Positions 19,193 to 63,995 of a DNA stretch of 64,000 bases are shown here, in pieces. The position numbers and the translations under genes were made by a program. The first letter of the stretch is position 1; each line of letters starts with the position of its first letter. The stretch is from NCBI GenBank assembly GCA_964598205.1, contig CAZRBB010000004.1, positions 2,324-66,323 on the forward strand, written 5' to 3'. The notes under the pieces are model-generated. The model was not told the origin of the DNA. It did no database searches and was given only the letters and a program-made list of their open reading frames with translations. The stretch is from an uncultured Candidatus Saccharibacteria bacterium. Its GTDB lineage: Bacteria; Patescibacteriota; Minisyncoccia; CAIUEV01; JAHKAQ01.

Positions 19193-19228
19193 CCTTAATT
19201 TTGAATTACGAATTTTGAATTTCGAAAT

Positions 19229-19382
19229 AGAACTTTTGTGAACCAATGTCCTTTTCGGAGTACGCTCGCCCTCGACCATGGCTCGCTCCACCTTGTTCCT
19301 GTTTTCCTTTGTCTAAAAAGCTTAGGGTTCAGTAGGCGGGAACAAGGAGACTCCTCTAAGAACATTGGTTCACAAAAGTTCT
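19229..19382. repeat. Family-A element, copy A3
   Basis: Perfect outer arms AGAACTTTTGTGAACCAATG ... CATTGGTTCACAAAAGTTCT enclose the conserved core. Confidence 0.75.
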
Positions 19383-19405
19383 AAATTCAAAATTAATTAA
19401 AAAGA

Positions 19406-20746: not shown

Positions 20747-20775
20747 GGAATAATTATGAATTTTGAGTTTTGAAA

Positions 20776-20934
20776 TTTTTTACAGAACCAATGTCCTTTT
20801 CGGAGTACGCTCGCCCTCGACCATGGCTCGCTCCACCTTGTTCCTGTTTTCCTTTGTCTAAAAAGCTTAGGGTTCAGTAGGCGGGAACAAGGAGCCTCCT
20901 CTAAGAACATTGGTTCTGTAAAAAATTATTAAAA
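20776..20934. repeat. Family-A element, copy A4
   Basis: The core is near-identical to A3. The outer arms differ: TTTTTTACAGAACCAATG ... CATTGGTTCTGTAAAAAA. Confidence 0.75.
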
Positions 20935-20976
20935 GTCCGGTTTATAAAATTGACTAATAATTTTTAATTCAGAGTA

Positions 20977-21600: not shown

Positions 21601-21601
21601 A

Positions 21602-22993
21602 ATGAGAAACCAAAAAAAAATAAGACGCGGTTCGATACTTCCTTTGGTTCTGGTTTTTGGAAGCTTTTTTTTAGTGGTCTTAGTGAGTCTTTTGGGATAT
21701 GTGGAAAGCCAACGGGGCCTGAGCATTAAAAAAGTTCAAAGGGAAGAAGCATTTAATATTTCTGAGGCTGGGCTGGCAATGTATCGCTGGCACATTGCTT
21801 CTGAATTAGATGGAAAAATTGCTGACGATATTCAAAATTATTGGGATGGGAGTCCGTTGGGAGTTCCTTTTTACGAAAGAGAATACAAAGATCCTCAAGG
21901 AAAAGCAGTAGGCAAATACCGCTTGGAAGTAACGGTACCTGAGCCTGGATCTACAATAATAGACGCTAAAATTACTGGCTGGAATTATCTTAATCCGAAT
22001 GCCAAGCGGATAATCAAGGCTCGTTTTAGGAAACCGGCTTGGAGCGAGTTTGCTGTGGTGGCCAACGATGTGATGCGATTTGGAGAAGGGACAGAAGTTT
22101 GGGGAAAGATCCATTCTAATGATGGCATTCGGTTTGATGGAATAGCACATAATTTGGTTTCTTCGGCGCGTGATGTTTATTGGGACCCCGATACTAGTTC
22201 CCAGAGGCCAGGGGTCTGGACTTCTAAATCTGATCCTGGTGATGTTTTTTTGGCAGGGACGGCATTTCCTTTGGCTACTGCTGATTTTACTGGGATCACC
22301 GGAGACCTGAGAGATATTAAGACCAATGCTCAATCTGGTGGACTTTATTTGGCTAAGACTACCGGATCTTACAAAAATGGTTATCGATTAAACATAAAAA
22401 CTAACGGAACAGTGGATGTTTACCGAGTAAAAACGCGCGGTGCTGTTAGCTATCAGATTCAATCAGAAACTTTTTTAAGGAACTATCCTTTGCCGGCTAA
22501 CGGTTTAATTTTTGTAGAAGATGATGCAACGATAGAAGGAACACTGAATAATAAATACTTAACAATTGTGGCTGCCGATATAACCTCTGGTGGTTCTTTT
22601 AGGAATATTTTTTTGGAGAAAGATTTGGTTTATGCTCACCGCAACGGTTCGGAGATTTTAGGATTGATTGCTCAGGGAAGTATTAAAATCGGGCTTTTTT
22701 CTAATAATGTTTTAAAAATTGATGGGGCATTGATTGCTCAGAACGGCAATGTGGGGCGCGATTATTTTACTTCTGGAGACAGTTCCACTTATTATAAAAG
22801 AGATACGATTACGGTTTATGGGGCTATCGCTACTAACCAGCGATACGGTTTTTCTTGGGGTTGCCCCACAACTTATTGTAGTGGTTATAAAAATCGTAAT
22901 CTGATTTTTGATTCAGAGCTGATCAATAAAATTCCGCCGTTTTTTCCAACTCAGAATAGCTATGGCTTAGATATGTGGGAGGAAGAAAAATAA
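21602..22993 (+). CDS. Membrane-anchored pilus-associated protein (PilX/minor-pilin-like position), 463 aa
   Basis: N-terminal TM ILPLVLVFGSFFLVVLVSLLGY. Immediately follows the pseudopilins in the operon. No prepilin E+5. Confidence 0.45.
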   Translation: MRNQKKIRRGSILPLVLVFGSFFLVVLVSLLGYVESQRGLSIKKVQREEAFNISEAGLAMYRWHIASELDGKIADDIQNYWDGSPLGVPFYEREYKDPQGKAVGKYRLEVTVPEPGSTIIDAKITGWNYLNPNAKRIIKARFRKPAWSEFAVVANDVMRFGEGTEVWGKIHSNDGIRFDGIAHNLVSSARDVYWDPDTSSQRPGVWTSKSDPGDVFLAGTAFPLATADFTGITGDLRDIKTNAQSGGLYLAKTTGSYKNGYRLNIKTNGTVDVYRVKTRGAVSYQIQSETFLRNYPLPANGLIFVEDDATIEGTLNNKYLTIVAADITSGGSFRNIFLEKDLVYAHRNGSEILGLIAQGSIKIGLFSNNVLKIDGALIAQNGNVGRDYFTSGDSSTYYKRDTITVYGAIATNQRYGFSWGCPTTYCSGYKNRNLIFDSELINKIPPFFPTQNSYGLDMWEEEK

Positions 22994-45309: not shown

Positions 45310-45795
45310 ATGGCTAAAATAAAGGAAAAATCAAAAAGAGGGAAACAAGAAACGGTTTCTCTTTTAAAAATCTTTACCGCCAAGGAGCCGGCTGATTTTT
45401 GTTTGCCGGCGGTTTTTTTGGCCAAGGCCTCTGGGGGCCGAGGATTAATCGCTCTTTACGGCGATCTGGGTAGCGGGAAAACGACCTTGGTGCGTTTTTT
45501 GGGGAAGGAATTAAAAGTGAAAGGTTTGCCAAATAGCCCCACCTTTAATATTTTAAAAACCTATTCTTTTCCTAGGGGAAAGACGCTTTACCATTTAGAT
45601 TTTTATCGCCTAAAAACGCCACAAGAAATTCTAGATCTGGGATTTAAGGAATGGTTTTTAGATAAAAATGGTCTTTTGGTGGTAGAATGGCCGGAGATAT
45701 TAGGAGAACACTTGCCGGCGCCACGATTAGAAGTAAGAATTGATTTTAAAAACGAATCACGAGAAATAAAGATTTTTAGGGTTACTAATTGTTAA
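45310..45795 (+). CDS. tsaE: tRNA threonylcarbamoyladenosine biosynthesis protein TsaE
   Basis: ALYGDLGSGKTTLVRFL and HLDFYRL motifs. 161 aa. Confidence 0.8.
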   Translation: MAKIKEKSKRGKQETVSLLKIFTAKEPADFCLPAVFLAKASGGRGLIALYGDLGSGKTTLVRFLGKELKVKGLPNSPTFNILKTYSFPRGKTLYHLDFYRLKTPQEILDLGFKEWFLDKNGLLVVEWPEILGEHLPAPRLEVRIDFKNESREIKIFRVTNC

Positions 45796-45797
45796 TA

Positions 45798-50761: not shown

Positions 50762-51925
50762 TTACGGTGGGTTACTTGCAGAAGGTTGGAGGATTCCTTG
50801 GGCATCGCACCAATTGGGGTTTCTGTCCCAAAAATCACGGCAGTAGCAGGAATAAGAGTTGTTGCCTTTTAGGACGCCTTGATTAGCTTGGAGGGCTGGT
50901 TTTCCTTGTGGTCCCCAAACGCTAGCGGATACGGCACCAAAAAGGGCGGGAACATTTGCCATAGCAGCGCAAATATTACCGACCTTGCCTCCTCCTCCAC
51001 AACTATTATTGGAATATCCGGCGCCTGGATCGTAAAGCCGGTAACAAGGATGACAGAATTGTTTAGCAATAACATCTGGATGGTCCCAGTATTTTTGACT
51101 AACAGCAGTGGTGTTCTTCTCCATGCAATGACACATTGATCCTTTAACATTACTGGTGAGATTTCGATAAAGAGTCCAGCACCAATGGGCCCCTTGGCTT
51201 TCATCGGTTCCTGCCCCGTAAAGATTCGACTGGGCGTTGTCTAGGTCACTGTCGTAATAGGCACATTCATTGAGATCGGTATAGCAAGTGGCTGAGCATT
51301 CGGGCCATATTCCTAGCCAGCCACGAATACCACCATTTGGTCCGGTGTCGTCAACTAACCCTGGGCACTCTGCTTTAGGAAAAGTTTTGATGGTTCCGGC
51401 GGTGGCGAGTTTATTGCAAACAATAAATGGTTTAATCACGGAAGAGGTAGAGATGCTATTTACGGTGGCGCCAACCGCTCTGGTTTTAGTGCTGGCATCG
51501 GAAAAATTGTCAGCGATTATTTGCGATCCTTTGGTAAAAATAGCGGTGGCTAAAAGGGGACTGGCGCAGTCGTCGGTTAGGGTAGCCGTTGCTTGGGTTA
51601 GTTGTTTATAGATAAATGTTTCAGCTTGATAATAATCGCAGTAGTAATCTTTAATGTTTTTGGCAAACATTTTATAAAGAGCCGGTCCGGCGGTTGTTGT
51701 GCTACCGTTTTCTAGTGCTGCCTTTCTACCCCACAGAGCACATTCAGCGGCTTCGTCTGCCTTTTGGTAGGCGGTTTCCGAAGAGTCCAAGGATTTAGAG
51801 GTTTTCTTTTTAGAAATGGTTAATTGGCTAATTCCAATAATAGAAATAGTCATTAGGGTGGCAATAATCAAAGCCAAAATAATCATGGCGGCTCCTTTTT
51901 CTTTTTTATTCGTTTTGTTATTCAT
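50762..51925 (-). CDS. Membrane-anchored, extremely Cys-rich extracellular protein heading the minus-strand pilin operon
   Basis: N-terminal hydrophobic anchor KGAAMIILALIIATLMTISIIG, which is pilin-like but has no E+5. More than 20 Cys in the C-terminal 250 aa (CPGLVDD, PECSATCYTDLNECAYY, SMCHCME, FCHPCY, SCGGGG, NICAAM, SYSCYCRDF, NWCDAQG). Confidence 0.55.
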   Translation of the reverse strand: MNNKTNKKEKGAAMIILALIIATLMTISIIGISQLTISKKKTSKSLDSSETAYQKADEAAECALWGRKAALENGSTTTAGPALYKMFAKNIKDYYCDYYQAETFIYKQLTQATATLTDDCASPLLATAIFTKGSQIIADNFSDASTKTRAVGATVNSISTSSVIKPFIVCNKLATAGTIKTFPKAECPGLVDDTGPNGGIRGWLGIWPECSATCYTDLNECAYYDSDLDNAQSNLYGAGTDESQGAHWCWTLYRNLTSNVKGSMCHCMEKNTTAVSQKYWDHPDVIAKQFCHPCYRLYDPGAGYSNNSCGGGGKVGNICAAMANVPALFGAVSASVWGPQGKPALQANQGVLKGNNSYSCYCRDFWDRNPNWCDAQGILQPSASNPP

Positions 51926-51950
51926 GTTTTGGGTATCTTTATGGGAAAAA

Positions 51951-52460
51951 TTAAGGAATTAAATTGTAGCTTCTTAGGGAAGTGGTCATTTGAAAAGGAA
52001 TGGTGATGTCTTCTGGGGAATCTTTAATAATAATATTAAAGACAATAGTTACTCGATTAAATCCGTCTACTCCCTCAGTATTTACTATTTTAAAATCCGA
52101 AATTTTAAAATTAGGGAAGTAAGATTCAATAGTTGCTTGGTTTAGAGTTATTAGGATTTCGCTATAGGTTTTTCCGTTTTCTTTGCGCCAGTTAAAAATA
52201 ATAGAGCTGGCAGGAACATTTGTAAGTTCGCTCATTCTAATTTGTTTGGAAATTTCCAGAACGGCTGCTTGAGCTTGAGCCTGAGCGGTTTGAATATTTT
52301 TTAACCGCAAAGAAGAAGTAGTAAGTGCGCGAGTAATCGAGGTTAAAGAAATAGCCACAAAAGAAAGAATAGCCACTACTACTAGCATTTCTATTAGGCT
52401 AAAGCCTTTTTGTTTTTCTTGTTTAATTTTTTGTTTTTTAGATTTCATTCGGGTCGCCAA
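51951..52460 (-). CDS. Prepilin-type pseudopilin / minor pilin
   Basis: KQKG then FSLIEMLVVVAILSFV. Confidence 0.7.
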   Translation of the reverse strand: MATRMKSKKQKIKQEKQKGFSLIEMLVVVAILSFVAISLTSITRALTTSSLRLKNIQTAQAQAQAAVLEISKQIRMSELTNVPASSIIFNWRKENGKTYSEILITLNQATIESYFPNFKISDFKIVNTEGVDGFNRVTIVFNIIIKDSPEDITIPFQMTTSLRSYNLIP

Positions 52461-53167
52461 TCATAAAGACATTTAGTAACTCTTACTCGGTGTAATGTTT
52501 TATTATTCTCTAACCATAGTAGATTATCATTAGCATTGCCTGGCCAGCTGTTTTCCCAAAACTCTGACCAGTAGACAGTGACTACCACTAGGGCACCACC
52601 TTGACCGTCTACTACTTCGCAGTTGTAGGTGATATCGAAAGCAGGAGAAGGGCTGACGCCATCTCTGTAAGTGGAAGTAAGGATTTGAATCTTGCGAATA
52701 AATTGGCGGGTGGCAGTGTTAATATTACATATCTGGTAATTTCCGGTTGCAGCAGCGCGACAAAGGCCGGCGCGATTATTATTAAAAGCGTAAGTACCAC
52801 TTCCTATATTGAAATTATTGACATAGGTACTGACGGTGTTATCTAAGGCGTAAGCATTTCTTGCTGGTGGGTTAGTGATGTGGTTAATTTGGTTAAATCC
52901 ATTCAAGGGAGTTACCGAATTTCTTAGACACCAGTTGTCTCCGGTGTCGCGGATGTTTCTAACCAGCTCTACGCCTTCTTGGGCTAAGGCGGCGGCAGTG
53001 ATTTCGTTTTTGGTAACAGAAGAAAGTCGTAAATTTCTAGTAATCAAAACAAGGCCAGTGGTTAGGGAAAGGCTAATAATGGCAATGGCTACCAAAAGTC
53101 CAACAATGGTAAACCCTTGATCTTGGGAATAGCTTTTGATTTTTTTGTGATTCGGTTTTAAGATCAT
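52445..53167 (-). CDS. Prepilin-like minor pilin lacking Glu at +5
   Basis: QDQG then FTIVGLLVAIAIISLS, with G at +5. Cys-containing C-terminal domain. Confidence 0.6.
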   Translation of the reverse strand: MILKPNHKKIKSYSQDQGFTIVGLLVAIAIISLSLTTGLVLITRNLRLSSVTKNEITAAALAQEGVELVRNIRDTGDNWCLRNSVTPLNGFNQINHITNPPARNAYALDNTVSTYVNNFNIGSGTYAFNNNRAGLCRAAATGNYQICNINTATRQFIRKIQILTSTYRDGVSPSPAFDITYNCEVVDGQGGALVVVTVYWSEFWENSWPGNANDNLLWLENNKTLHRVRVTKCLYDWRPE

Positions 53168-53215
53168 TGTTTTTGAGTTTTTTTGGTTTTATTTTTACCT
53201 AACAACTGCTTTTGT

Positions 53216-53713
53216 TTATTGAACATCGATAGAAGTAGTGGTTACATTGATGGTGAAAATGGTATTGGGATCGGCACAGGCATTGTCTCCACAGACTCTA
53301 ATGGCGCAAGGGGCGACACTACGGGTCATTTCGGCATGAGGAGGACTAAAATAGATAGTAGCGTTCTCTAAGAGGATTCCGTCTGTTGCAGGAATGGTTA
53401 CTGTTTTTAGGTTGATAACATTATTATTGGGATTGACTGAGCCAATCTTATAGGTGTTTCCTCCGGTTATAGAAAACACAAAACTCTCAGGAACAACGCT
53501 ACCAGGAGGGACATTTTCCCCGGTTAAGGCGTAATTGCGAGCTTGTTCAATCATATCTTTTATTTGCTGGGCTCTGATTTGAGCTCGTTTTACTCTTGTT
53601 GATTGCTGCCATTTGATTACTCCTCCTGTCACTAAAAGACCAATAATTACCACAACAACCAAGACTTCTATGATTGTAAAGCCATTCTTTGATTTTGTTT
53701 TTTGATTATTCAA
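53216..53713 (-). CDS. Type IV pilin
   Basis: KSKNG then FTIIEVLVVVVIIGLLV. C-terminal disulfide pair CAIRVCGDNACADP. Confidence 0.75.
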   Translation of the reverse strand: MNNQKTKSKNGFTIIEVLVVVVIIGLLVTGGVIKWQQSTRVKRAQIRAQQIKDMIEQARNYALTGENVPPGSVVPESFVFSITGGNTYKIGSVNPNNNVINLKTVTIPATDGILLENATIYFSPPHAEMTRSVAPCAIRVCGDNACADPNTIFTINVTTTSIDVQ

Positions 53714-53796: not shown

Positions 53797-54879
53797 ATGC
53801 TTTCTTCTTTGGGTAGTATAATCAATAGTTCCAAGAATAGTTCTATTGGAATTGATATTGGAACTTCTTCCATTAAAATAGTTCATTTAAGTGGCTCAAC
53901 AGAAAAAGTGGTTTTGGAAAATTTTGTAATTGCTAGGCTTAAAGAAGGCTTGATTCAAAATAGCAATCAGATTATTGCCGGAAAGCAAATTGCTCAAATT
54001 ATTAAAGTGGCAATGGAAAAGGGCGGTATTAAATCGGGAACTATTTCTTTTTCTATTCCTACTTTTTCTTCTTTTTCTTCTTTTATTACTCTTCCGCGAT
54101 CAGATGAAGAAAATTTGGCCAGCAAGGTAGAAATAGAGGCTCGGAAATATATTCCCGTTCCTCTTTCTGAAGTTTCTTTGGGTTGGGAAATAGTTCCCGA
54201 CAACTACAAGCCGCGCTCCATGGAAATAAAATCCCAAGAAAAAATAATAAAAATACTTTTAATGGCAGTTTCTAAGGACATTATTCAAAAATATGAAGCA
54301 ATTGCCAGGAGTGCCGGATTAAACTTGGGTTCCATGGAAGTAGAAACTTTTTCCTTGATTCGTTGCTTAATAGGTCAGGATAAAACGCCTTCCTTGATTA
54401 TAGACATTGGTTCTCGGGTTTCTAATTTAATGATTGTAACAGAAGGATTTTTGCGTGGCAGTAGCAGTATTGATGTTGGCGGAGGAGAGGTGACAGAGGC
54501 TGTTGCCAGGGGAATGGGAGTTGATTTTATTAGAGCAGAAGCCCTAAAAAAAGAATGGGGAGTAGATAATCCACAGGTGGCTGAATTAATAACCCCGGTG
54601 ATTTTAAGAATTGTTCAAGGAATTAAAAAAGCAATAGAATCTTACGAAAAAAATAATCCCAGCAAAAAGATGGAAAAAATAATCTTAATAGGAGGAACAT
54701 CTAAGATGAAGGGCTTTAAAGAGTATTTAAAAAAAGAATTGAATTTAAAAATAGAAGATGGCAATTCATTGAAATTGGTTTCTGTGGAAAAATTAGTAGA
54801 ACCATTGGTGCAAAAATTTAAAGATGAATTAGCAGTAGCAGTGGGGATTGCGCTTTCTGGAATGGAAAACTTGCAATAA
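53797..54879 (+). CDS. pilM: Type IV pilus assembly protein PilM (second copy)
   Basis: SIGIDIGTSSIKIVHL N-terminus. Actin-like fold signatures. 360 aa. Confidence 0.8.
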   Translation: MLSSLGSIINSSKNSSIGIDIGTSSIKIVHLSGSTEKVVLENFVIARLKEGLIQNSNQIIAGKQIAQIIKVAMEKGGIKSGTISFSIPTFSSFSSFITLPRSDEENLASKVEIEARKYIPVPLSEVSLGWEIVPDNYKPRSMEIKSQEKIIKILLMAVSKDIIQKYEAIARSAGLNLGSMEVETFSLIRCLIGQDKTPSLIIDIGSRVSNLMIVTEGFLRGSSSIDVGGGEVTEAVARGMGVDFIRAEALKKEWGVDNPQVAELITPVILRIVQGIKKAIESYEKNNPSKKMEKIILIGGTSKMKGFKEYLKKELNLKIEDGNSLKLVSVEKLVEPLVQKFKDELAVAVGIALSGMENLQ

Positions 54880-54935
54880 AAAGACAGTTCTTATATTATT
54901 CAGTTGTGAGAAGATTTTAGAAAACTAAAATAAAA

Positions 54936-55625
54936 ATGATTAATACTGGTGGCATAAATTTTGCCAAACAGACGGGGATTTATAAAGAAGAGCAAAAAAA
55001 AGAGTTATTTGCCAAGGGATTGGTAATCTCTGTTTTTGTGTTTCTTTTTTTGGGTTTAATTTCTGGCTGGACCTATCTTTCAAAGCAAAGTCAAGAAAAG
55101 AAAATGGTGGCTCTGAATGCTGACTTGGTAAAAGAGAGGCAAAGAGATTATGGGGAATTGGCTGAATTTATGACTGATTCTGTAAAGCTGGACTTTATTG
55201 GTGATTTTTCTTTGAAGCAAAAATTTTGGAGTGGGCTTCTTGGAGAGCTTGAAAAAGGAATTTTAGTTAACTCCTATTTAAAATCATTAAAAGGAACGAC
55301 TTCTTACAATATTAAAGGATTTCTTTCTCAGGCCGTAAGCGATCCGGTGATTGCCGGATCCGCTACTATTCCAACAGTGGGGGCTACAGGAGCTATTCAA
55401 GAAGTAGATAGTCTTGTTCTTACTGTAGTTGCTCCTACGCTGAATGATATTGCAAAACAGATAGTTTCTTTAGAAGAGTCTCCAGCAATAGCTGACCTAA
55501 CAGTTATTTCTCCTTCTTTGTCCGAAGAAGGAGTTTCTTTTGAATTAAAAATTGAGCTTGTGCCTGGAGCGTGGGAAAGATCGTTTTATGCTCAAAAAGA
55601 AAATAGCCTAAATCTTGAACAATGA
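54936..55625 (+). CDS. pilN: PilN-like protein (single TM)
   Basis: TM LVISVFVFLFLGLISGW. Operon position after pilM. Confidence 0.5.
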   Translation: MINTGGINFAKQTGIYKEEQKKELFAKGLVISVFVFLFLGLISGWTYLSKQSQEKKMVALNADLVKERQRDYGELAEFMTDSVKLDFIGDFSLKQKFWSGLLGELEKGILVNSYLKSLKGTTSYNIKGFLSQAVSDPVIAGSATIPTVGATGAIQEVDSLVLTVVAPTLNDIAKQIVSLEESPAIADLTVISPSLSEEGVSFELKIELVPGAWERSFYAQKENSLNLEQ

Positions 55626-56386
55626 TTAAAGCCTTAGCCTTGCCACTTTCTATTATTGTTTCTGCAATTGTTTTTTTCTTTTTTCTTTCTCCTACATATA
55701 AAGAGACTAAACGGATTAAAGAAGTAGAAATTCCATTTTTAGAAGAAAAGATTAAAAAAGAACAAGAAATAACGAAGAATATTAATTCTCTGGGAGAAGA
55801 TTATGCCCTACATAAGGAAGAATTAAAGAGATTGAAATATATTTTACCAGAAAACAAGGATGTAAAGTCTCTTTTGGTCCAGATTGAGGCTCTGCTTTTA
55901 GGAAACGGAATGGCCTATAAGAAAATAGGGATAGAAGATGTTTCCAAGTCTGCTTCTGCCAACCAATTCGTGGCTTCGGGCGTAGTTCCTTTGGCTGGAA
56001 CTTTTTCTGCTCCTTCTCCAGAACCAATAAGTATTTCTTTGGAACTAAAAGGAACATACCTTAATTTTAAAAATTTTATTAAGGAGTTAGAAGTTTTGGA
56101 TCGGATTTGTAATGTAACCTTACTGACTATTGGAAATATTGAAGTTCTTGGTGAAGTTGCTGAAATAAAAGCTCCAAGTGAAGGTGTGTCTATTGCTAAC
56201 AATGTTGTTCCAGATAAGGAGCTTGATATTAAAGTGACTTTGGAGTTTTACAGTCAAAAGCCGATAGCTAAGGAAGAAATTGAACAGGCTTTTAGGTCGG
56301 CACAAGGAGGAGCTTCTAGTCCTGTTACGACTGGATCCGACGGATCAACTCTTTCTCCAGCTACTCCGCCTCCAGCTACCCCGTAA
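55622..56386 (+). CDS. pilO: PilO-like protein (single TM)
   Basis: ATGA overlap with the upstream gene. TM LPLSIIVSAIVFFFFL. Ser/Thr/Pro-rich C-terminus. Confidence 0.5.
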   Translation: MIKALALPLSIIVSAIVFFFFLSPTYKETKRIKEVEIPFLEEKIKKEQEITKNINSLGEDYALHKEELKRLKYILPENKDVKSLLVQIEALLLGNGMAYKKIGIEDVSKSASANQFVASGVVPLAGTFSAPSPEPISISLELKGTYLNFKNFIKELEVLDRICNVTLLTIGNIEVLGEVAEIKAPSEGVSIANNVVPDKELDIKVTLEFYSQKPIAKEEIEQAFRSAQGGASSPVTTGSDGSTLSPATPPPATP

Positions 56387-56425
56387 AGTTTCTATTTTTT
56401 TAATAAAAGTTATTTTTTAAAAAGT

Positions 56426-56773
56426 ATGTTTTCTAAAAAATCAAAATTTCTTCTTATTTTTTCTTTCCTAGCGTTGGTTGGTTCCTTTTATTTTTTTGCT
56501 TTCGATTTTTCTTGGGGAGCGGAAGAAGCTTCTCTGAGCGTTCCTCCAACAGCCGGAGATCCGCTAACTAGCAGTGATCCCTCTGCTCTTAATTCGGTTG
56601 CGGCTGACACTAATTCTTCGGCGTCTTCTAGCCTTAATGTTGGTGGACTTTTAATTCCTTCTACTTTGAATAAAAAAGGAATCGAATTCCTTACTCTATT
56701 AAAGGGCAAGGGAATTTTTCCGATAATATTAGATCCAGGTACGGTGGGTAAAGAGAACATTTTCAAAAAATGA
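56426..56773 (+). CDS. Small secreted protein, unknown (PilP-like position)
   Basis: Signal/TM FLLIFSFLALVGSFYFFAF. Low-complexity Ser-rich region. Confidence 0.4.
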   Translation: MFSKKSKFLLIFSFLALVGSFYFFAFDFSWGAEEASLSVPPTAGDPLTSSDPSALNSVAADTNSSASSSLNVGGLLIPSTLNKKGIEFLTLLKGKGIFPIILDPGTVGKENIFKK

Positions 56774-56788
56774 TAAGGTAGATTTTAT

Positions 56789-58465
56789 ATGGAAAATAAA
56801 GATCTTTTAAGAGAAGAAAAGGTTATTGATTTAATAGGAAAAGAAGTTCCTTATAAAGTTTTAAGTGTTTTGGCTAAGGAAGCGGCAGATAAATACCAAA
56901 TGCTTGTTTTTGAAAAAGGAGAGAAGGTTCTTAAGGTGGCCATGGTTGATCCTGAAAATGTGGAGGCATTAAATGCTCTTCGCTTTATTGCCAATAAGCT
57001 TGGTTCAGAAGTAGAAGTCTTTCGGGTTTCAGAGGATGGATTTGCTTCGGCTTTTGTTGGTTATGATAGGGCGGAGGTGATTGTTCAAAAGGCTCAAACG
57101 GACTACATTAAAAAAGAAAAAGAGATAGAGGCAGAAAAACAGCAACGAGAAAAGATTAAGGAAGATGTTAAAACTATTGGTTCGGCGCCGATTACTAAAA
57201 TTGTAGATGTAATTTTGCAACATGCAGTTTTGGGGGGAGCGAGCGATGTGCATATTGAACCTCAGGAAAACGAATTAAGAGTGCGCTATCGAGTAGATGG
57301 TGATTTATATGAAAGCTTTAAACTTTCACGGGATTTAACGGCGGCGCTGGTTTCGCGGGTTAAAATTATGTCTAATCTAAGAATTGACGAAAAAAGAAAA
57401 CCGCAAGATGGACGCTTGCAAATAGTAATGGAAGGGCGGAAAGATGTAATAGATGTGCGGGTTTCTAGTTTGCCAACGGCGGAAGGAGAAAAGGTAGTGA
57501 TGAGAATCTTAGAAAAGCAAACAGGATTGGATCAATTTAATAATTTAGGATTGATTGGTCGGAATCAAAGAATAATAGAGAAAGGATTAGACGAACCTTA
57601 TGGAATTATTTTAGTGACTGGTCCTACTGGTAGCGGTAAATCTACCACTATTTTTACTTGTTTGCGGAAGATAAATAAGTTGGACACGAATATTGTTACC
57701 TTGGAAGATCCAGTAGAATATAAGGTTCCTGGAGTGAATCATTGTCAAGTTAATCCGGAGATTGGATTTACCTTTGCTTCTGGTCTGCGGTCTATTTTGC
57801 GTCAAGATCCGGATGTGATTATGGTAGGGGAAATTAGAGATAAGGAGACGGCGGAACTAGCGGTTCATGCTGCCCTGACCGGTCATTTAGTTCTTTCTAC
57901 ATTACATACTAACGACGCTTTAGGTGCAATTCCTCGCATGGTGGACATGGGGATTGAACCATTTCTGCTTTCTTCTAGCCTACGAGTGACTGTTGCCCAA
58001 CGATTGGTGCGACGAGTTTGTAATAATTGTAAAAAAGAAGTTAAGCCGTCGGATCGAATAAAACAGTATGTTCTAAATAGTTTAAAACTAGTCCCCCAAG
58101 AAGAGATAAAAGAACGACTGCCTAATTTTGATCCAGATAATTTTTTTGTTTGGCAGGGCATAGGATGTTCTAAATGCAAAAATACAGGAACCAAAGGAAG
58201 AATTGCGATTTATGAAGTAGTGGAATGCGGAACGGAAATGAGAAGGGTGATAGACGACAGCCTAAATGCGTCTTCTTTGGTTAATGAATTTAAAAGACAA
58301 GGAGCTACCTTAATGAGAGAAGATGGGGTTATGAAAGCATTAAATGGAGAAACAACGGTTGAAGCAGTAGAAGAGGCGACCACAGAAGACGATATTAACA
58401 AAGAAGAAGAAGTTGCCGATGAAGAAAAAAGTGTAGAAAAAGTAATGGTGGAAAACGAAACTTAA
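56789..58465 (+). CDS. pilB: Type IV pilus assembly ATPase PilB (second copy)
   Basis: GSPII_N-like N-terminus. Walker A VTGPTGSGKSTTIFTCL. Tetracysteine CNNC...CSKC. Confidence 0.9.
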   Translation: MENKDLLREEKVIDLIGKEVPYKVLSVLAKEAADKYQMLVFEKGEKVLKVAMVDPENVEALNALRFIANKLGSEVEVFRVSEDGFASAFVGYDRAEVIVQKAQTDYIKKEKEIEAEKQQREKIKEDVKTIGSAPITKIVDVILQHAVLGGASDVHIEPQENELRVRYRVDGDLYESFKLSRDLTAALVSRVKIMSNLRIDEKRKPQDGRLQIVMEGRKDVIDVRVSSLPTAEGEKVVMRILEKQTGLDQFNNLGLIGRNQRIIEKGLDEPYGIILVTGPTGSGKSTTIFTCLRKINKLDTNIVTLEDPVEYKVPGVNHCQVNPEIGFTFASGLRSILRQDPDVIMVGEIRDKETAELAVHAALTGHLVLSTLHTNDALGAIPRMVDMGIEPFLLSSSLRVTVAQRLVRRVCNNCKKEVKPSDRIKQYVLNSLKLVPQEEIKERLPNFDPDNFFVWQGIGCSKCKNTGTKGRIAIYEVVECGTEMRRVIDDSLNASSLVNEFKRQGATLMREDGVMKALNGETTVEAVEEATTEDDINKEEEVADEEKSVEKVMVENET

Positions 58466-58477
58466 ATTAAACTTAAA

Positions 58478-58885
58478 ATGCCAATAGAATTAAAAAGAAA
58501 AATCAAGAAGAAAATTTTAATAGTAGAAGATGATCCTTTTATTTCTGATATTTACTCTACCAGTTTAACTGGTCAGGGATTTGAAACGGAATTAGCTTTT
58601 AATGGCGAAGAGGCTTTAGAAAAGCTTAGGAAACAAAAATTTGACTTGATGATTTTGGATGTTCTAATGCCTAAAAAAGATGGCTTTGCTGTTTTAAAAG
58701 AAATACGGTTAAACCCTAGTCTAAAAGTTCCAGTTTTAATGCTGAGCAACCTAAATGGAGAAGAATGTGTTAAGATGGGAATGGAATTAGGGGCGGAGGA
58801 TTTTGTGGTGAAGACTCATTTTACTCCCCAAGAAGTTGTACAAAAAATAAAAGAAATAATAGAAACTAAAGGGTTAAACAATTAA
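58478..58885 (+). CDS. Single-domain response regulator (CheY-like receiver, PilH-like)
   Basis: ILIVEDDPFISD, DLMILDVLMPKKDG and the conserved Lys region. 135 aa. Confidence 0.85.
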   Translation: MPIELKRKIKKKILIVEDDPFISDIYSTSLTGQGFETELAFNGEEALEKLRKQKFDLMILDVLMPKKDGFAVLKEIRLNPSLKVPVLMLSNLNGEECVKMGMELGAEDFVVKTHFTPQEVVQKIKEIIETKGLNN

Positions 58886-58894
58886 TTTTTTAAA

Positions 58895-59965
58895 ATGAGC
58901 GTTCAAAGTCGCGGGAAAATGCAAAATCTTTTAGAATCGGTGGTTCAGCAGGGAGCTTCTGATCTTCATTTATCTATAGGTAAGCCACCTATTCTTCGAA
59001 TTGATGGAGCGCTAGTTCCTCTTTCAGATAAAAATACTCTTAATGAAAAAGAAGTCACAGAGCTGATTACTTCGGCAATGACAGAAAGTCAAAAGGCGCG
59101 ATTACAAAACGATTTAAGCATAGACTTTTCTTTTAGTTTGGCGGGTAAGGCGCGATTTCGGGCTAATGTTTTTTACCAGTTGGGAGTTTTGAGTGGTGCT
59201 TACCGTTTAATAGATTCCAGAATAAGAACGATCGACGAGCTGGGTTTACCGCCGATTATTCACGAGTTTGGTAAGCTAAAACAAGGACTGGTGCTGTTTG
59301 TGGGGCCAACTGGTCACGGTAAATCAACTTCTATGGCGGCCCTGATCGATGAAATAAATCATAATCGCACGGAGCATATAGTAACCATAGAAGATCCAAT
59401 AGAATATGTTTATCAGCAAGATTTATGCGTTGTTAATCAAAGAGAGGTTGGTCACGATGTGCTTTCTTTTGAAAGTGGCTTACGATCGGCGTTCCGAGAA
59501 GATATTGATGTGATTCTTTTGGGAGAAATGCGAGATTTGGAAACCATTAGCACGGCGATTACGGCGGCAGAAACAGGACATCTTATTTTTTCTACACTGC
59601 ATACTAACGATTCTTGGCAAACAATAGACCGGATTATAGATGTTTTTCCTGGGAATCAGCAAAATCAAATTCGATCACAGTTGGCGAGCGTTCTAGAAGG
59701 TATTGTTTCTCAAAGATTAATTTCTAAAACTGGTGGTGGGCGGGTTCCGGCAGTGGAGGTGCTTTTAAGAAACGACGCAGTAGAAAATCTGATTCGCGAA
59801 GGGCAAACTCACCAAATTACTAATGTTTTAGAAACAAGCACCGAACAGGGAATGCAATCTATTAATCGTTCCTTGGCGGAATTGGTGCAAAAAGGAGAAA
59901 TAAGCATTGACGATGCCGAATCTTATGCTTCCGATAGAGATATTTTTCATATGTTGATTAAATAA
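58895..59965 (+). CDS. pilT: Twitching-motility retraction ATPase PilT
   Basis: Walker A VGPTGHGKSTS. PilT-size (356 aa) with no GSPII_N domain. AIRNLIRE-like motif as AVENLIRE. Confidence 0.9.
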   Translation: MSVQSRGKMQNLLESVVQQGASDLHLSIGKPPILRIDGALVPLSDKNTLNEKEVTELITSAMTESQKARLQNDLSIDFSFSLAGKARFRANVFYQLGVLSGAYRLIDSRIRTIDELGLPPIIHEFGKLKQGLVLFVGPTGHGKSTSMAALIDEINHNRTEHIVTIEDPIEYVYQQDLCVVNQREVGHDVLSFESGLRSAFREDIDVILLGEMRDLETISTAITAAETGHLIFSTLHTNDSWQTIDRIIDVFPGNQQNQIRSQLASVLEGIVSQRLISKTGGGRVPAVEVLLRNDAVENLIREGQTHQITNVLETSTEQGMQSINRSLAELVQKGEISIDDAESYASDRDIFHMLIK

Positions 59966-59996
59966 AAGATTTATAGGGGTAAGTCTTAAAATAAAT

Positions 59997-61208
59997 ATGG
60001 ATTTTAAATACAAGGCAAAAAATTTACAAGGAGGTGTGCAGACTGGAGTGGTAAAGGCGGCTGATCAAACTGCCGCCATGGATGTTTTGGCAAAAAACAA
60101 TCTGGATGTTTTTATGATAGAGCCGGTTCGCTTGATTGGTGGAATTTCTTTGATTTTATCTAATTTTTTCAATAGGATTTCTCCTAAGGATTTGGTTATT
60201 TTTTCTAGACAACTTTCTGTGCTTATTAAATCTAATGTGTCGGTGATCAAGTCTCTAAAGATTATTTCCGAACAAACAGAAAGTGGTGGTATGAAAAATG
60301 TTTGCGTGCAAATGGCTACGGCGGTAGAAGAAGGTAAATCGCTAGCAGATGCGGTGGCGCTTTTCCCAAAGCAGTTTGATAATTTTTTTGCAAGTGTTAT
60401 TCGGAGTGGGGAAACTTCTGGGAATTTAGAGCATTCGCTAATTTATTTGGCTGACCATGTGGAGCGAGCTTACGAACTAAAAAGAAAAATCAAAGGAGCA
60501 ATGATGTATCCAGTGGCTATTTTGACGGCTTTTTGCGGAATTTTCTTTTTTTTAATGGTAAAGGTTTTGCCACAGTTAACAGACATTTTGACTGAATCTG
60601 GGGTTGCGTTGCCTTGGACTACTAAGTTGATTATTTGGTTGTCTGACTTTATGAAGGCTCACTGGGTAATTACCCTTGCCATGATTCTTATAACAATAGG
60701 TACATTCTTTTATTACAGTCGAACAAAGGCTGGGAAAAAGCAGTTCGACACTTTAATCTTTAGAATACCGGTTATTGGAACTGTAATTCGGTTTGCGTAT
60801 ATTGCACGGTTTGCTGAGAATTTACGGGTGCTTTTAACGGAGGGTATTTCTCTTGTAAAGGCACTAGATATTATGGCGGCTGTAATGGATAATGAGGTTT
60901 ATCGGATTCTGTTATTGCGGATTATGAAAAATGTGGAGAAGGGAAAGAGCATGACAGAGGCGATGCTGGAAGATGAACAGGCCTTTCCTAGAATGGTTTC
61001 GCAAATGATTAAGATTGGAGAAGATTCAGGAAGAACAACGGAAATTTTAGAAAATATTGAAAATTTTTACACCAAGGAAGTAAACAATATGACAGAAAAC
61101 ATGACTACTTTAATTGAACCGCTTTTAATTGTTATATTGGGATTAGGTACTGGTATTTTGGTGGTTGCAATTATTATGCCGATATATGACATGGCGGGAG
61201 CAATGTAG
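59997..61208 (+). CDS. pilC: Type IV pilus platform protein PilC (second copy)
   Basis: Duplicated GspF domains. 403 aa. Confidence 0.9.
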   Translation: MDFKYKAKNLQGGVQTGVVKAADQTAAMDVLAKNNLDVFMIEPVRLIGGISLILSNFFNRISPKDLVIFSRQLSVLIKSNVSVIKSLKIISEQTESGGMKNVCVQMATAVEEGKSLADAVALFPKQFDNFFASVIRSGETSGNLEHSLIYLADHVERAYELKRKIKGAMMYPVAILTAFCGIFFFLMVKVLPQLTDILTESGVALPWTTKLIIWLSDFMKAHWVITLAMILITIGTFFYYSRTKAGKKQFDTLIFRIPVIGTVIRFAYIARFAENLRVLLTEGISLVKALDIMAAVMDNEVYRILLLRIMKNVEKGKSMTEAMLEDEQAFPRMVSQMIKIGEDSGRTTEILENIENFYTKEVNNMTENMTTLIEPLLIVILGLGTGILVVAIIMPIYDMAGAM

Positions 61209-61212
61209 TATG

Positions 61213-61390
61213 ATAAAGGTCACGGTTAAATGGGTGAATGGATTTTTCGATTGGCGCATTTCATCGTTAAAACCTCCGTCGCTTGCTCTGCGTAACGCCA
61301 TTACGCTTCGCTCGCTTACTCGGTTTTGCCTCGAACTGCATTAAAAATAAAGGTCACGGTTAAATGGGTGAATGGATTTTTCGATTGGCG
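61213..61390. repeat. Family-B element copy B3 (61257-61346) bracketed by a perfect 44-bp direct repeat
   Basis: ATAAAGGTCACGGTTAAATGGGTGAATGGATTTTTCGATTGGCG occurs at 61213-61256 and again at 61347-61390. The B core CATTTCATCGTTAAAACC...GGTTTTGCCTCGAACTG lies between them. Confidence 0.75.
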
Positions 61391-61457
61391 TATTTCTTCG
61401 GAGAAGTTATAAACCATTTTTTATGGTAAAAACAAAAAGAGAGGGGGTGAGCGTTAA

Positions 61458-61859
61458 GTGAGAACAAAACAAAAAGGGTTTACAATGGTAGAACTTTTAG
61501 TAGTGATTGCCATTATTGGAATCTTAGCTTCCATTGCTTTGATTTCTTACAATAATGTTCAAAATAAAGCCAAAGATAAAGCGGCTATTGGAGAAATGAC
61601 TCAATTAAGAACTCAAGCGCAAGTTTTTTATGATGATACTGCCAATGTTTACACTGGTTTTTGTGCCGATGCCGAGACTACTAGAATTGCCGGAAGTATT
61701 GCCGATCATGGCGGAACTGCATTTAATTGTGATGCTGGAACCGATGAATGGGCAGCAGAAGTGACCCTGGCGGGTGGTACTATTTATTGCGTTGATTCTT
61801 CTGGAACTTCCAAAACTATTGCAGCTACCAAAGGAGCGGATACGACGGTTTGCGAATAA
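61458..61859 (+). CDS. pilA: Type IV pilin (probable major pilin)
   Basis: GTG start. Leader (M)RTKQKG then FTMVELLVVIAIIGILASIAL. Strong hairpin terminator follows. Confidence 0.8.
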   Translation: MRTKQKGFTMVELLVVIAIIGILASIALISYNNVQNKAKDKAAIGEMTQLRTQAQVFYDDTANVYTGFCADAETTRIAGSIADHGGTAFNCDAGTDEWAAEVTLAGGTIYCVDSSGTSKTIAATKGADTTVCE

Positions 61860-61867
61860 GTTATTAA

Positions 61868-61908
61868 CTTTTACAAGCCTCATCTTTTGGGGTGAGGCTT
61901 GTAAGGTT
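61868..61908 (+). terminator. Hairpin terminator after the pilin gene
   Basis: ACAAGCCTCATC-TTTTGG-GGTGAGGCTTGT. Confidence 0.55.
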
Positions 61909-61974
61909 GGCTGATATGGTTTAAAATGAACAAAATCGAAATTAATAAATTTTAATAAACAGAAGAATAAAAAA

Positions 61975-62541
61975 ATGAAGACAAAAATGAAGACCAAAAT
62001 GAAGACCAAAATGAAGACCAAAGCAAAGAAAGTGACCAAGCCAAAAACCAAGAAGAAGCCCGTGGCTAAGCCAAAGACAAAATTAAAGGTAAAACCAAAA
62101 ACCAAGAAAAGAGGGTTTACTTTAATAGAAATGTTAATTGTGGTGGCAATTATTGGTGTTTTGGCGACGGTAGTATTGGTAGCGGTGGTTCAAGCTAGAA
62201 AAAAGTCTAACGCTACACAAGCTAAAGCACTAGTGTCTCAATACATGCAGGCGTTAGAAATGTATAAAGCAAATGGTTGTGATGGATCTCTGGCAATCAG
62301 CACTCCTTTTAACGGTCTTCCATTGAAGGATTGCAACAATGAAGTATTAATGGAAAGGTTCGTTAATATATCTGTTCCCGGTGTTCTTCCTGCTGGTATG
62401 ACGTATACTTGGGCAACAATGACATATAATGACTATGAAATGACTATAAAAGGCTTTAGTGACGGTGAGATTTTCATATGTAAAAATGGGGCTTGTACTT
62501 GTTCTACCCAGCTCCAGACTAGCTGTACTAAGTCCAAATAA
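61975..62541 (+). CDS. Type IV pilin with an unusually long lysine-rich leader of tandem MKTK repeats
   Basis: MKTKMKTKMKTKMKTKAKKVTKPKTKKKPVAKPKTKLKVKPKTKKRG then FTLIEMLIVVAIIGVLATVVL. The DNA carries tandem ATGAAGACCAAA units. Confidence 0.7.
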   Translation: MKTKMKTKMKTKMKTKAKKVTKPKTKKKPVAKPKTKLKVKPKTKKRGFTLIEMLIVVAIIGVLATVVLVAVVQARKKSNATQAKALVSQYMQALEMYKANGCDGSLAISTPFNGLPLKDCNNEVLMERFVNISVPGVLPAGMTYTWATMTYNDYEMTIKGFSDGEIFICKNGACTCSTQLQTSCTKSK

Positions 62542-62567
62542 TTTTTCTGTACTTGTTTGAATAACAA

Positions 62568-62600
62568 AAACGGCTTTCTTTTTGGGGGGAGCCGTTTTGA
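62568..62600 (+). terminator. Hairpin terminator after the second pilin gene
   Basis: AAAACGGCT-TTCTTTTTGGGGGG-AGCCGTTTT. Confidence 0.5.
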
Positions 62601-62701
62601 TTTAGGTTTAAAATGATTTTTTGGGAGTGATTTTATTTTTTGTTATACTGTTAGGCAGTCTGAGCTAGGGTCATTATTTGGGAGCAATAAAAATAATAGA
62701 A

Positions 62702-63544
62702 ATGATTATTTTTCTCTTCTTTGTTTTTCTTTTTGGTCTTATTTTTGGTTCTTTTTTAAATGCGCTTCTTTACCGTTTAGAAAAAGAAAAAGATTTTGTT
62801 TGGGAGCGTTCCTGTTGCCCCAAATGTGGGAAGCTGATTAGCTGGTACAACAACATTCCTTTATTAAGCTTTGTGTTTTTGGGTGGTAAGTGTCGTGATT
62901 GCAAGAAGCCGATCAGTTGGCGGTATCCGTTGGGTGAATTTTTAACGGCAGTGCTGGGCGGTGTTGCGTTGATGGCTTTTTGGCCAGTAATTGGTCTTGG
63001 CTTGGAAGATATTTCTTTATGGATTGTTTTTTTTGGTTTTTACATACTTTCTGTTTGTGCAGTTTTATTAGGGGTTTTTCTTTATGATTTAAAACATTAT
63101 TTAATTCCCGATGAGCTTTTGATTTGGGGGGGAGTGGTGGCTTTTTTGTTTAATATTTTTTCTGATTTTAAGTTTTACGATTTTTCTAATTTGGGGCTTT
63201 CTTTTTTTACTAGAAGTTTGACTGGATCGGGAATATTAGCGGCCCTGATTGCTGGTGGTTTCTTTTTTGGCTTGGTATATTTTTCCCGTGAAAAATGGAT
63301 GGGGTGGGGAGATGTTAAGCTTGGGCTTTTAATGGGGGTTCTGTTGGGTTTTCCTAGGATTCTAGCGGCGCTTTTTTTGGCGTATTTGGTTGGGGCGGTG
63401 GTTTCTGTTTTCTTGGTAGTCTTAAAAAAGAAAAAGTTTAAATCGGAAGTTCCTTTTGGTCCCTTTCTGTGCGCGGCGACCTTTGTGGTTTGGCTTTGGG
63501 GTGAAGAGATTATTAGTTGGTACTTTAGAATTTTGAATTTTTAA
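62702..63544 (+). CDS. pilD: Prepilin peptidase (A24 family, leader peptidase / N-methyltransferase)
   Basis: N-terminal zinc-binding CCPKCG...CRDCKK. Multiple TM helices. GWGDVKLG catalytic-Asp region. The start is set at the ATG (MIIFLFF). The six-frame ORF begins at a TTG 24 nt upstream at 62678. Confidence 0.85.
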   Translation: MIIFLFFVFLFGLIFGSFLNALLYRLEKEKDFVWERSCCPKCGKLISWYNNIPLLSFVFLGGKCRDCKKPISWRYPLGEFLTAVLGGVALMAFWPVIGLGLEDISLWIVFFGFYILSVCAVLLGVFLYDLKHYLIPDELLIWGGVVAFLFNIFSDFKFYDFSNLGLSFFTRSLTGSGILAALIAGGFFFGLVYFSREKWMGWGDVKLGLLMGVLLGFPRILAALFLAYLVGAVVSVFLVVLKKKKFKSEVPFGPFLCAATFVVWLWGEEIISWYFRILNF

Positions 63545-63620: not shown

Positions 63621-63995
63621 GTCATTCCGAGCGTTAGCGAGGAATCCCTTTTACTAAAAAAATGAGAGACTATAATTTTTTTGTTTATATTGTTGCTAGC
63701 GATTCAGGAACTTTATATACCGGAGTAACCAACAATCTCAAAAGAAGGATCTGGGAACATAAAAATGGTTTTTTCGAAGGTTTTTCTAAAAAATATAAAT
63801 GTCATAAGTTGATTTTTATGGAAAGATTTCAATATGTTAAAGACGCTATTGTTGCTGAAAAGAGAATTAAGGGATGGAGCCGAAAAAAGAAAGAAGATTT
63901 AATTGGAATAAAGAATCCTTGTTGGAAAGATTTAAGCGTTGGCTTGTAATAATAAGGATGGCTCAAGGGATTCCTCGCTGCGTTCGGAATGACAG
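63621..63995. mobile_element. Compact element: GIY-YIG nuclease ORF bounded by roughly 30-bp terminal inverted repeats
   Basis: Left IR GTCATTCCGAGCGTTAGCGAGGAATCCCTT (63621-63650). Right IR AAGGGATTCCTCGCTGCGTTCGGAATGACAG (63965-63995). The ORF lies between them. Confidence 0.65.
63662..63949 (+). CDS. GIY-YIG nuclease family protein (UPF0213-like), 95 aa
   Basis: FFVYIVASDSGTLYTGVTNNLKRRIWEHKNG...KLIFMERF contains the GIY-YIG core (YIV...Y.G, R, E). Confidence 0.75.
   Translation: MRDYNFFVYIVASDSGTLYTGVTNNLKRRIWEHKNGFFEGFSKKYKCHKLIFMERFQYVKDAIVAEKRIKGWSRKKKEDLIGIKNPCWKDLSVGL

Follow-up and report, generated by a model that had tools for sequence, protein, structure and literature searches.

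A long lysine-rich prepilin leader opening with a tandem start-codon repeat in a type IV pilus locus of an uncultured Candidatus Saccharibacteria bacterium

The prepilin and its locus

The 64,000-nucleotide stretch of DNA analysed here (hereafter the window; contig CAZRBB010000004.1 of an uncultured Candidatus Saccharibacteria bacterium, GC content 37%) carries a type IV pilus locus and, within it, a 188-residue open reading frame (ORF) which, judged by its motif and its surroundings, is a genuine type IV prepilin, the second and variable pilin of a locus of the type IVa pilus (T4aP) kind. Its predicted leader is 47 residues long and opens with four start codons repeated in tandem (Table 1). 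The original prediction had described the gene as a prepilin with an exceptionally long polycationic leader, and the Pfam N_methyl match, the register of the solved pilins and the Lys counts all bear this out.

Indeed, the N_methyl family (PF07963) matches residues 43-68 (E 9.6e-10, 38.1 bits against a cut-off of 21.2), where the hydrophilic leader ends in a Gly (KKRG47) and is followed by F48TLIE52 and a hydrophobic stretch, with the Glu at +5. In an alignment of 16 homologues, G47, F48, T49, L50 and E52 are invariant columns, and in a phmmer search of the PDB, mature residue 1 of the solved pilins (6xxd PilA, the Geobacter pilin and the P. aeruginosa and Neisseria pilins) aligns to residue 48 of the query. 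The cut by PilD is thus predicted between G47 (codon 62113-62115) and F48 (codon 62116-62118), so that the leader, put beforehand at roughly 45 residues, is slightly longer than that, at 47. It contains 23 Lys, one Arg and no acidic residue, for a net charge of +24. It is of low complexity, matches no other family in the Pfam scan, and is the segment richest in Lys among all ORFs of the window; since no other window ORF comes near, we rejected the idea that the genome is generally given to Lys-rich insertions of low complexity. In the AlphaFold2 (AF2) model, which is of low confidence (mean pLDDT 58, pTM 0.39), residues 1-49 form a coil, followed by a helix at 50-99 (alpha-1) and four strands; Foldseek, run on this same low-confidence model (pLDDT 58), gave no significant match in the PDB. 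The C-terminus of the mature pilin carries the Cys-rich motif GF..GE.F.C.NG.C.C....C.

The genes around it are, in their Pfam content, those of a T4aP-type locus. The machinery comprises, in order, PilM, a 229-aa ORF in the PilN position, PilO, a 115-aa ORF, PilB, a response regulator, PilT and PilC, with matches to PilM_2, PilO, T2SSE (twice, in PilB and PilT) and T2SSF; for the 229-aa ORF, at 54936, no Pfam match was found. A gene for a bifunctional PilD begins 137 nt past the focal gene, which is the last pilin gene before pilD, and this PilD is the enzyme expected to remove the focal leader. The gene that we call pilin 1 is probably the major pilin of the locus, and is conserved in a relative (locus L012, 74% identity). 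It combines a short leader with the PilD that the focal pilin would share, and may serve as an internal contrast: T4a leaders are short (about 5-7 residues), a range within which pilin 1 falls with 7 and which the focal pilin exceeds with 47.

Table 1. Positions of the focal prepilin gene, its parts and its surroundings in the window
Feature	Position	Strand	Description and basis
Focal ORF, type IV prepilin	61975..62541	+	188 aa; starts MKTKMKTKMKTKMKTKAKKVTKPKTKKKPVAKPKTKLKVKPKTKKRG, then FTLIEMLIVVAIIG after the cleavage site
Leader coding region	61975..62115	+	47 codons, last four residues KKRG; translation and residue counts
Tandem array	61972..62022	+	Four 12-bp units AAA-ATG-AAG-AC(A/C), MKTK four times; Tandem Repeats Finder
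Older degenerate part of the leader	62023..62112	+	AKKVTKPKTKKKPVAKPKTKLKVKPKTKKR; three KPKTK motifs; sequence
Class III signal/N-methylation motif	62101..62178	+	KKRG then FTLIEMLIVVAIIGVLAT; Glu at mature position 5
Mature pilin	62116..62541	+	141 aa plus stop; alpha-1 helix and small beta head in a low-confidence model; Cys-rich C-terminus
Promoter-like site	61899..61927	+	TTGTAA-17-TAAAAT; consensus scan, prediction only
Strong terminator-like hairpin after pilin 1	61860..61915	+	No U tract; separates the two pilin genes
Terminator-like hairpin 3' of the focal gene	62567..62598	+	Scan
Pilin 1	61458..61859	+	GTG start; 7-residue canonical leader VRTKQKG, then FTMVELL
PilD prepilin peptidase/N-methyltransferase	62678..63544	+	A24_N_bact 2.9e-30, Peptidase_A24 2.4e-12
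T4aP-type machinery	53797..61208	+	Pfam; PilB/PilT/PilC names in the source; gene table of L009
Divergent block	50762-53713	-	Three N_methyl-bearing minor-pilin-like genes and a 386-aa ORF with no Pfam match

Assembly can go wrong at short tandem repeats, and the Logan contigs break nearby, in the interval between pilC and pilin 1. An artefact of sequencing or assembly, in which a repeat wrongly shortened or lengthened, or a chimera, has made an artificial N-terminal extension, is nevertheless extremely improbable, and in practice we exclude it, because independent contigs are identical to the window with all four repeat units included. The Joint Genome Institute (JGI) contig 3300045131 Ga0485169_0000005 (L009) is identical over the 8,004 bases compared, and a Logan contig of 2,651 nt (L011), recovered in 6 sequencing runs and spanning pilin 1, the focal gene, PilD and a GIY-YIG gene, is identical over 2,640 bases. 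Moreover, the 48-bp array is far below read length, and the frame stays intact and runs on into the canonical prepilin motif. PilB, PilT, PilC and GroEL of the window are also present as exact sequences in public assemblies. The 188-aa product appears in both gene tables, JGI and Logan, which come from independent gene callers, with no Pfam match recorded for it in either. An exact look-up had missed this protein; a different start call or repeat number was suspected, and the suspicion was dropped as the contig DNA is identical.

As to the break itself, one Logan contig (L010) ends at window position 61242 and the next begins at 61361, and the JGI contig is continuous through the gap. The break (61243-61360) could reflect heterogeneity of the population, or a problem of coverage or structure in the 250-nt spacer between pilC and pilin 1.

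The tandem repeat and the choice of start

Tandem Repeats Finder describes the array as 4.2 copies of a 12-bp unit (AAAATGAAGACC) with 97% match and a score of 95, which ranks it among the strongest tandem repeats of the window and, of those with a short period, at the top. The in-frame ATGs lie at 61975, 61987, 61999 and 62011, a start-to-start spacing of 12, 12 and 12 that a second repeat finder returned as well. Units 2-4 are identical and unit 1 differs from them by a single base (ACA instead of ACC). The three identical units point to a recent expansion by slippage, and the earlier description of the repeat as slippage-prone holds in the sense that it resembles a product of recent slippage. 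Apart from it, the window has a single in-frame coding repeat of some size, a 21-bp unit (4.1 copies, 86% match) at 15438-15524, inside an ORF on the opposite strand (14852-15976, -). An antisense ORF (61605..62105, 166 aa, Phe/Leu-rich) overlaps the leader region; we take it to be spurious, being the complement of the Lys-rich leader and of the 3' end of pilin 1.

The genome appears to make no use of Shine-Dalgarno (SD) sequences. Only 3 of the 39 genes inspected have an SD-like tetramer within about 17 nt upstream of their start, and the starts of the inspected genes sit in A-rich contexts. This SD-poor window agrees with the loss of the anti-SD motif in one subgroup of Parcubacteria (PMC9297842). 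We scored start contexts with a weight matrix built from 37 other ATG-start genes of the window. ATG1 to ATG4 of the repeat scored 10.1, 6.7, 3.2 and 2.8, respectively, whereas 159 internal in-frame ATGs average -5.4, with 1.9 as their 95th percentile. All four are at least at the 96th percentile of this set, and ATG1 beats all 159 internal ATGs as well as every true start (leave-one-out maximum 9.9). The four in-frame starts noted from the sequence beforehand are therefore confirmed, every one in a start-like context. An in-frame stop (TGA, 61927-61929) lies upstream of them, and initiation at any of the four gives, in frame and without a stop, a leader of 35-47 residues. The messenger is predicted to be free of structure there: the minimum free energy is 0.0 kcal/mol in the 40-nt windows starting at 61950-62025, that is to about 62064, which covers all four ATGs, compared with -2 to -10 kcal/mol per 40 nt in the remaining focal mRNA.

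Could the gene start further downstream? From the repeat to the cleavage site the only in-frame starts are GTG codon 20 (62032, 28-residue leader) and GTG codon 30 (62062, 18-residue leader), and no in-frame start in the focal ORF combines a leader of normal length with a good context. With one of the GTGs as the true start, the ATG repeat would belong to the 5' untranslated region. In favour of this, the context of GTG codon 20 is moderately like that of a start (1.7, 93rd percentile), pilin 1 in this locus also begins with GTG, and the closest homologues carry shorter leaders; we still find this reading quite unlikely. Four ATGs of better context lie upstream in the same frame, and initiation there would read without a stop into the pilin; the remaining scored genes begin with ATG, in A-rich surroundings; the predicted promoter puts the four ATGs on the mRNA, with no promoter-like site in the leader; and both the JGI and the Logan gene callers gave the 188-aa product. 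The resulting 18-28 Lys-rich residues would, besides, still exceed a T4a leader. The original prediction had named as its refutation a true start at the last start codon before the cleavage site, giving a normal leader: the scores lend this no support, as it would require GTG codon 30, whose context resembles that of an internal codon (-2.9) and whose leader is still 18 residues long.

Judging from consensus matches, the focal gene probably has its own transcript. The promoter-like site (one of 5 found in the scan, with 4.1 expected in shuffles) has its -35 element in the 3' arm of the hairpin that follows pilin 1, and its predicted transcript start, near 61934, lies about 40 nt before the first ATG, which places all four ATGs on the mRNA; the same consensus scan found no promoter-like site within the leader. 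The hairpin itself folds at -28.6 kcal/mol (z -5.8 against 200 shuffles) and may act as a terminator or attenuator by which the relative amounts of pilin 1 and pilin 2 are set. An Rfam scan of 61200-62700 returned an L20_leader at 62524-62609, which was rejected as chance (19.5 bits against a threshold of 58.7).

The codons of the leader are themselves informative. AAG encodes 13 of the 23 Lys, whereas its share of Lys codons in the genome as a whole is 28% (binomial p = 0.004, rising to 0.008 if the repeat unit enters the count a single time), and no run of A within the leader exceeds 5 nt. Long poly(A) tracts cause ribosome sliding, and the preference for AAG together with the short A runs is a hint that the leader is translated, as if such tracts were avoided.

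Pilin 1 has a different upstream region. Its GTG start lies behind a strong SD-like GAGGGGGTGA (61441-61450), of a kind found in almost no other window gene, and its 74% identical orthologue in L012 has GGAGGTGA upstream of 5470. This conserved G-rich element would point either to an anti-SD kept for a few highly expressed genes or to some other role.

Leader length among relatives and the origin of the expansion

Full-length homologues of the mature part share 28-56% identity with it, and those that are named come from Staskawiczbacteria, Jorgensenbacteria, Moranbacteria and the "Parcubacteria group", which puts the bacterium within the candidate phyla radiation (CPR)/Patescibacteria. In 30 of these homologues the leaders measure between 6 and 37 residues (median 12) and are, with few exceptions, Lys/Arg-rich, and the closest homologue (P0002) has a leader of 10 residues. 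The syntenic locus L012 shares with the window PilB (67% identity), PilT (69%), PilC (66%), pilin 1 (74%) and the same PilD and ligase neighbours. Its pilin-1 leader is of 7 residues, as in the window, and the counterpart of the focal pilin is present there in two copies, with leaders of 12 (MKLIKMKRDKKG) and 9 (MEIKAKKRG) residues. Longer leaders are found elsewhere: 14 residues in P0046 of a Ca. Staskawiczbacteria locus (L007; MKTKMKTKIKRLKG, encoded by ATGAAAACAAAA twice), 24 in P0083 (L014, 821-1387; MKTKKKSCGCCSRKKTKSNKKKKG), which directly follows a pilin-1 orthologue, and 25, with 14 Lys, in P0209 of a syntenic operon (L008; MKKKKTTKKKAVKKVVKKTAKRKKG). Poly-K leaders of 12-14 residues characterize a Parcubacteria-type family of pilins of about 125 aa (for example P0235, MAKKKKTKKKKG), and within the window one pilin of the divergent block (50762-53713, -) has a 15-residue Lys-rich leader, MKSKKQKIKQEKQKG.

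Several homologues also begin with MKTK, namely P0083 (MKTKKK), P0218 (MKTKK) and P0046, which has it twice with Lys codons differing from those of the focal repeat. By this comparison MKTK would evidently be the ancestral N-terminus, repeated in tandem to two copies in one lineage and to four in the focal pilin; because the P0046 pair uses different Lys codons, duplication of the start unit appears to be a recurring kind of event. Leaders of 23-30 Lys-rich residues in P0083, P0178, P0159 and P0114 carry Cys clusters (KSCGCCSR, KKCACCVK, SACCSKSSGCCSG and MKCCCSK), and such Cys-rich leaders might serve in metal binding on the cytoplasmic side or in lipidation.

Among the 323 pilin leaders that we collected, the focal one is the longest and most basic. 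The Lys maximum of the collection is 17, in a gene-call fusion, and otherwise 14; only P0115 (43 residues; 28 from an internal Met) reaches at least 40 residues with at least 30% Lys. Searches aimed at the leader itself gave little. A HMMER search with residues 1-80 against 1.84 billion representatives aligned no protein across the whole leader, and its top matches, in which the motif lies deep in long proteins, were set aside as duplicated or fused pilin N-termini or gene-call fusions, not giant leaders. A leader-weighted 56-aa query against 5.8 billion sequences gave no scorable match, as low complexity cannot reach significance, and a profile of Lys-rich N-termini, dominated by the hydrophobic helix, found nothing beyond the 12-14-residue poly-K leaders. 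Scans of genome and metagenome contigs with the full protein returned only unrelated or distant pilins (L001-L005) and no close relatives. Taken with the homologues, the focal leader looks like the far end of a continuum, neither an isolated oddity nor a conserved feature.

We consider it probable that the 47-residue leader is a tolerated, near-neutral and lineage-specific expansion of a weakly constrained leader, not a dedicated module or a switch. The leader lies on the cytoplasmic side by the positive-inside rule, and the peptidase cuts after the Gly at the cytoplasmic face of the membrane; the length of prepilin leaders differs between systems, and a short leader is not discriminatory for T4aP (PMC10191384). 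Leader length would be weakly constrained because the leader is discarded after cleavage, and its expansion would be tolerated because Lys codons rich in A are compatible with SD-less initiation as well as with the positive-inside rule. The gene would be transcribed from its own promoter past the pilin-1 hairpin and translated by SD-less initiation on the unstructured A-rich 5' region, presumably for the most part from the first of four equivalent AUGs. The polycationic leader and the hydrophobic alpha-1N would then insert with the N-terminus inside (positive-inside rule, PMC10191384), after which, as the motif and the PilD domains suggest, the neighbouring PilD would cut behind G47, methylate F48 and leave the leader to be discarded. 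Each slippage of the 12-bp start unit AAA-ATG-AAG-ACC would add 4 residues with no change of frame or mature protein, and the KPKTK motifs may be older, decayed duplications from an earlier phase in which KPKTK-coding units slipped. The richness in Lys would persist since AAR codons are favoured by mutation at 37% GC, leave the initiation region without structure and supply the positive charge.

The long leader could instead be a selected functional module, be it a start-codon array with an unstructured Lys ramp that raises SD-independent initiation, a cytoplasmic domain that gates or delays PilD processing, or one that, until it is removed, binds nucleic acids or anionic lipids; the original prediction had likewise imagined a regulatory or DNA/RNA-binding leader. 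The four start-like ATGs in a region of zero predicted structure would fit such a role, as would the enrichment in AAG and the avoidance of long A runs in spite of 23 Lys, the recurrence of 23-30-residue Lys-rich leaders (P0083, P0209, P0178, P0159, P0114) and the duplicated MKTK of P0046. We nevertheless hold it to be rather unlikely. The leader is conserved in neither length nor sequence, the syntenic L012 having 9 and 12 residues and P0002 having 10, and syntenic orthologues span 9-25 residues; the leader consists entirely of low-complexity sequence, matches no family and is a coil in the model; nothing similar over its whole length was found among the 1.84 billion representatives or with the leader-weighted query; and pilin 1, probably the major pilin, is expressed with an SD-like element and a leader of 7 residues. 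Broader still, polylysine leaders and start arrays could be a selected adaptation of the pilins of CPR bacteria to SD-less translation, to control of prepilin processing, or to both, which we deem unlikely. If true, the A-rich Lys ramp with its multiple AUGs would act as an initiation enhancer or, alternatively, the polycationic tail would retain the prepilin, up to its assembly, at PilD or at the anionic face of the membrane, and leader length would be a dial for the expression or assembly of variable pilins in ultra-small episymbiotic bacteria.

It was also proposed beforehand that the repeat could reflect phase or translation-level control. In such a contingency locus, slippage would shift the number of units and thereby switch or tune pilin expression. 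Three identical 12-bp units and one near-identical one are what recent slipped-strand events leave behind, 2 units are present in a counterpart elsewhere, and pilin genes are frequent targets of variation; however, because the unit is 12 bp long, in frame and supplied with its own ATG, slippage cannot switch the gene off, and a gain or loss spares frame and start and alters a discarded leader by 4 residues. Four 12-bp copies are, moreover, a low-rate substrate for slippage compared with homopolymers or 2-5-bp tracts. The comparison of repeat number that had been suggested was run at the assembly level, and no variation in copy number was found in the JGI contig or in the Logan contig from 6 runs: all assemblies available have 4 units, with no contig break at the repeat. 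We judge a contingency locus very unlikely.

Several points weigh against the tolerated expansion that we favour. The closest relative available is only about 55% identical. Lys-rich leaders of 23-30 residues are seen again in several homologues, in part with Cys clusters, and the enrichment in AAG and the avoided A runs suggest some selection on translation of the leader; both observations would also fit a function of long leaders. The context matrix mostly measures A-richness, which the leader itself supplies, so that there is some circularity in the scores of ATG2-4. The promoter matches the consensus weakly, and both the usage of the starts and the cleavage at G47/F48 are read from the sequence.

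How does this pilin compare with known systems? Type IVa pilins (PilA/PilE; PF07963, IPR012902) share with it the G/FTLIE motif, Glu5, the hydrophobic alpha-1N and a disulfide-capable C-terminus, as well as a locus of PilM/O/B/T/C genes with a bifunctional PilD adjoining; their long N-terminal helix with a small beta head would have its counterpart in the low-confidence AF2 model. They differ in their leaders, which count about 5-7 residues, whereas the focal one has 47, roughly half of them Lys, and opens with a four-fold repeat of the start unit. Type IVb leaders (TcpA, BfpA, CofA/LngA) are of about 13-30 residues. T4b leaders are described as much longer than classical T4a ones, and those of the Streptococcus sanguinis T4aP pilins PilE1 and PilE2 as very long (PMC10191384). 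The earlier statement that class III leaders normally measure 5-10 residues is accordingly right for classical T4a pilins and wrong for these. Prepilin peptidases tolerate leaders far beyond 7 residues there, and it follows that leader length does not define the type of machinery. These leaders are shorter than the focal one and of mixed hydrophilic composition, neither poly-lysine nor built of repeats, and T4b pilins have different mature N-termini and another machinery, without the PilT/PilMNO set, whereas the focal locus is T4a-like.

A further likeness is to CPR/Parcubacteria pilins (P0235, P0209, P0083 and P0046), which share the Lys-rich composition of the leader, the MKTK N-terminus and the type of lineage; P0209, P0083 and P0046 also share the position in the locus, and P0046 the tandem duplication of the start unit. 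Their leaders have 12-30 residues and at most 14 Lys, against 47 residues, 23 Lys and 4 start units here, and some carry Cys clusters, of which the focal leader has none. Slipped-strand contingency repeats are found in the poly-G of Neisseria pilC, in its signal-peptide region, and in the Mycoplasma Vlp/Vsa repeats. The focal repeat resembles them in being a tandem repeat, probably born of replication slippage, in the 5' coding region of a gene for a surface structure, and differs from them in that a change of copy number leaves the mature protein and the on-state intact and that no variation is seen at the assembly level.

Neither prepilin leaders of polylysine nor pilins with tandem start-codon units turned up in the searchable literature, and leader length is not discussed in the CPR pilus papers searched. 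The earlier claim that no such pilins have been described stands for that literature, but many unannotated CPR pilins have poly-Lys leaders of lesser length (12-30 residues). A new mechanism or a new kind of system is unlikely. Type IV pili are thought to be central to host attachment and DNA uptake in CPR/Patescibacteria, and to our knowledge the pilins of these bacteria are almost uncharacterised. The present case indicates that prepilin leaders in CPR lineages can far exceed the textbook in length and basicity (47 residues, net charge +24), that in a single pilin family the leader can change readily in length during evolution (6 to 47 residues), and that in-frame duplication of a start-codon unit is one route of leader growth. 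Tools of the PilFind and SignalP type and gene callers may miss or mis-start pilins with such long leaders. The series of leaders offers natural substrates for asking how much leader a prepilin peptidase tolerates and, should the leader prove functional, it would represent an unrecognised layer of control of pilin expression in SD-less bacteria.

Other genes of the window

Downstream of PilD lie a small GIY-YIG gene (63662-63949) and then, outside the window, a DNA ligase. In L012 (7396-10398) pilD is directly followed by the ligase with no GIY-YIG gene between, and because of this the stand-alone GIY-YIG gene looks like a mobile insertion, as far as gene order can tell. In one collected protein (P0035) a GIY-YIG domain is joined to a pilin through gene calling. 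In the syntenic locus L008, nucleotidyltransferase/HEPN pairs of toxin-antitoxin-like type (6900-7808 and 12215-13112) are inserted between the two pilin genes and once more ahead of pilD. The pilin region looks like a favoured site of insertion.

A second gene set resembling type II secretion and type IV pilus systems occupies 16114-22993 of the window. It contains a T2SSF platform protein (17978-19192) and a protein with a weak N_methyl match (20977-21600), which has a GVG start region and the motif KG/MSLVEA, and the set hints at another type IV filament system in the genome. Elsewhere, a tRNA-Tyr gene (48605-48688, -) overlaps the final ~100 nt of the DNA polymerase I ORF (45789-48704, +). 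The Pfam DNA_pol_A match stops at residue 934 of the 971 of this ORF, whose C-terminal tail may run over the tRNA-Tyr gene.

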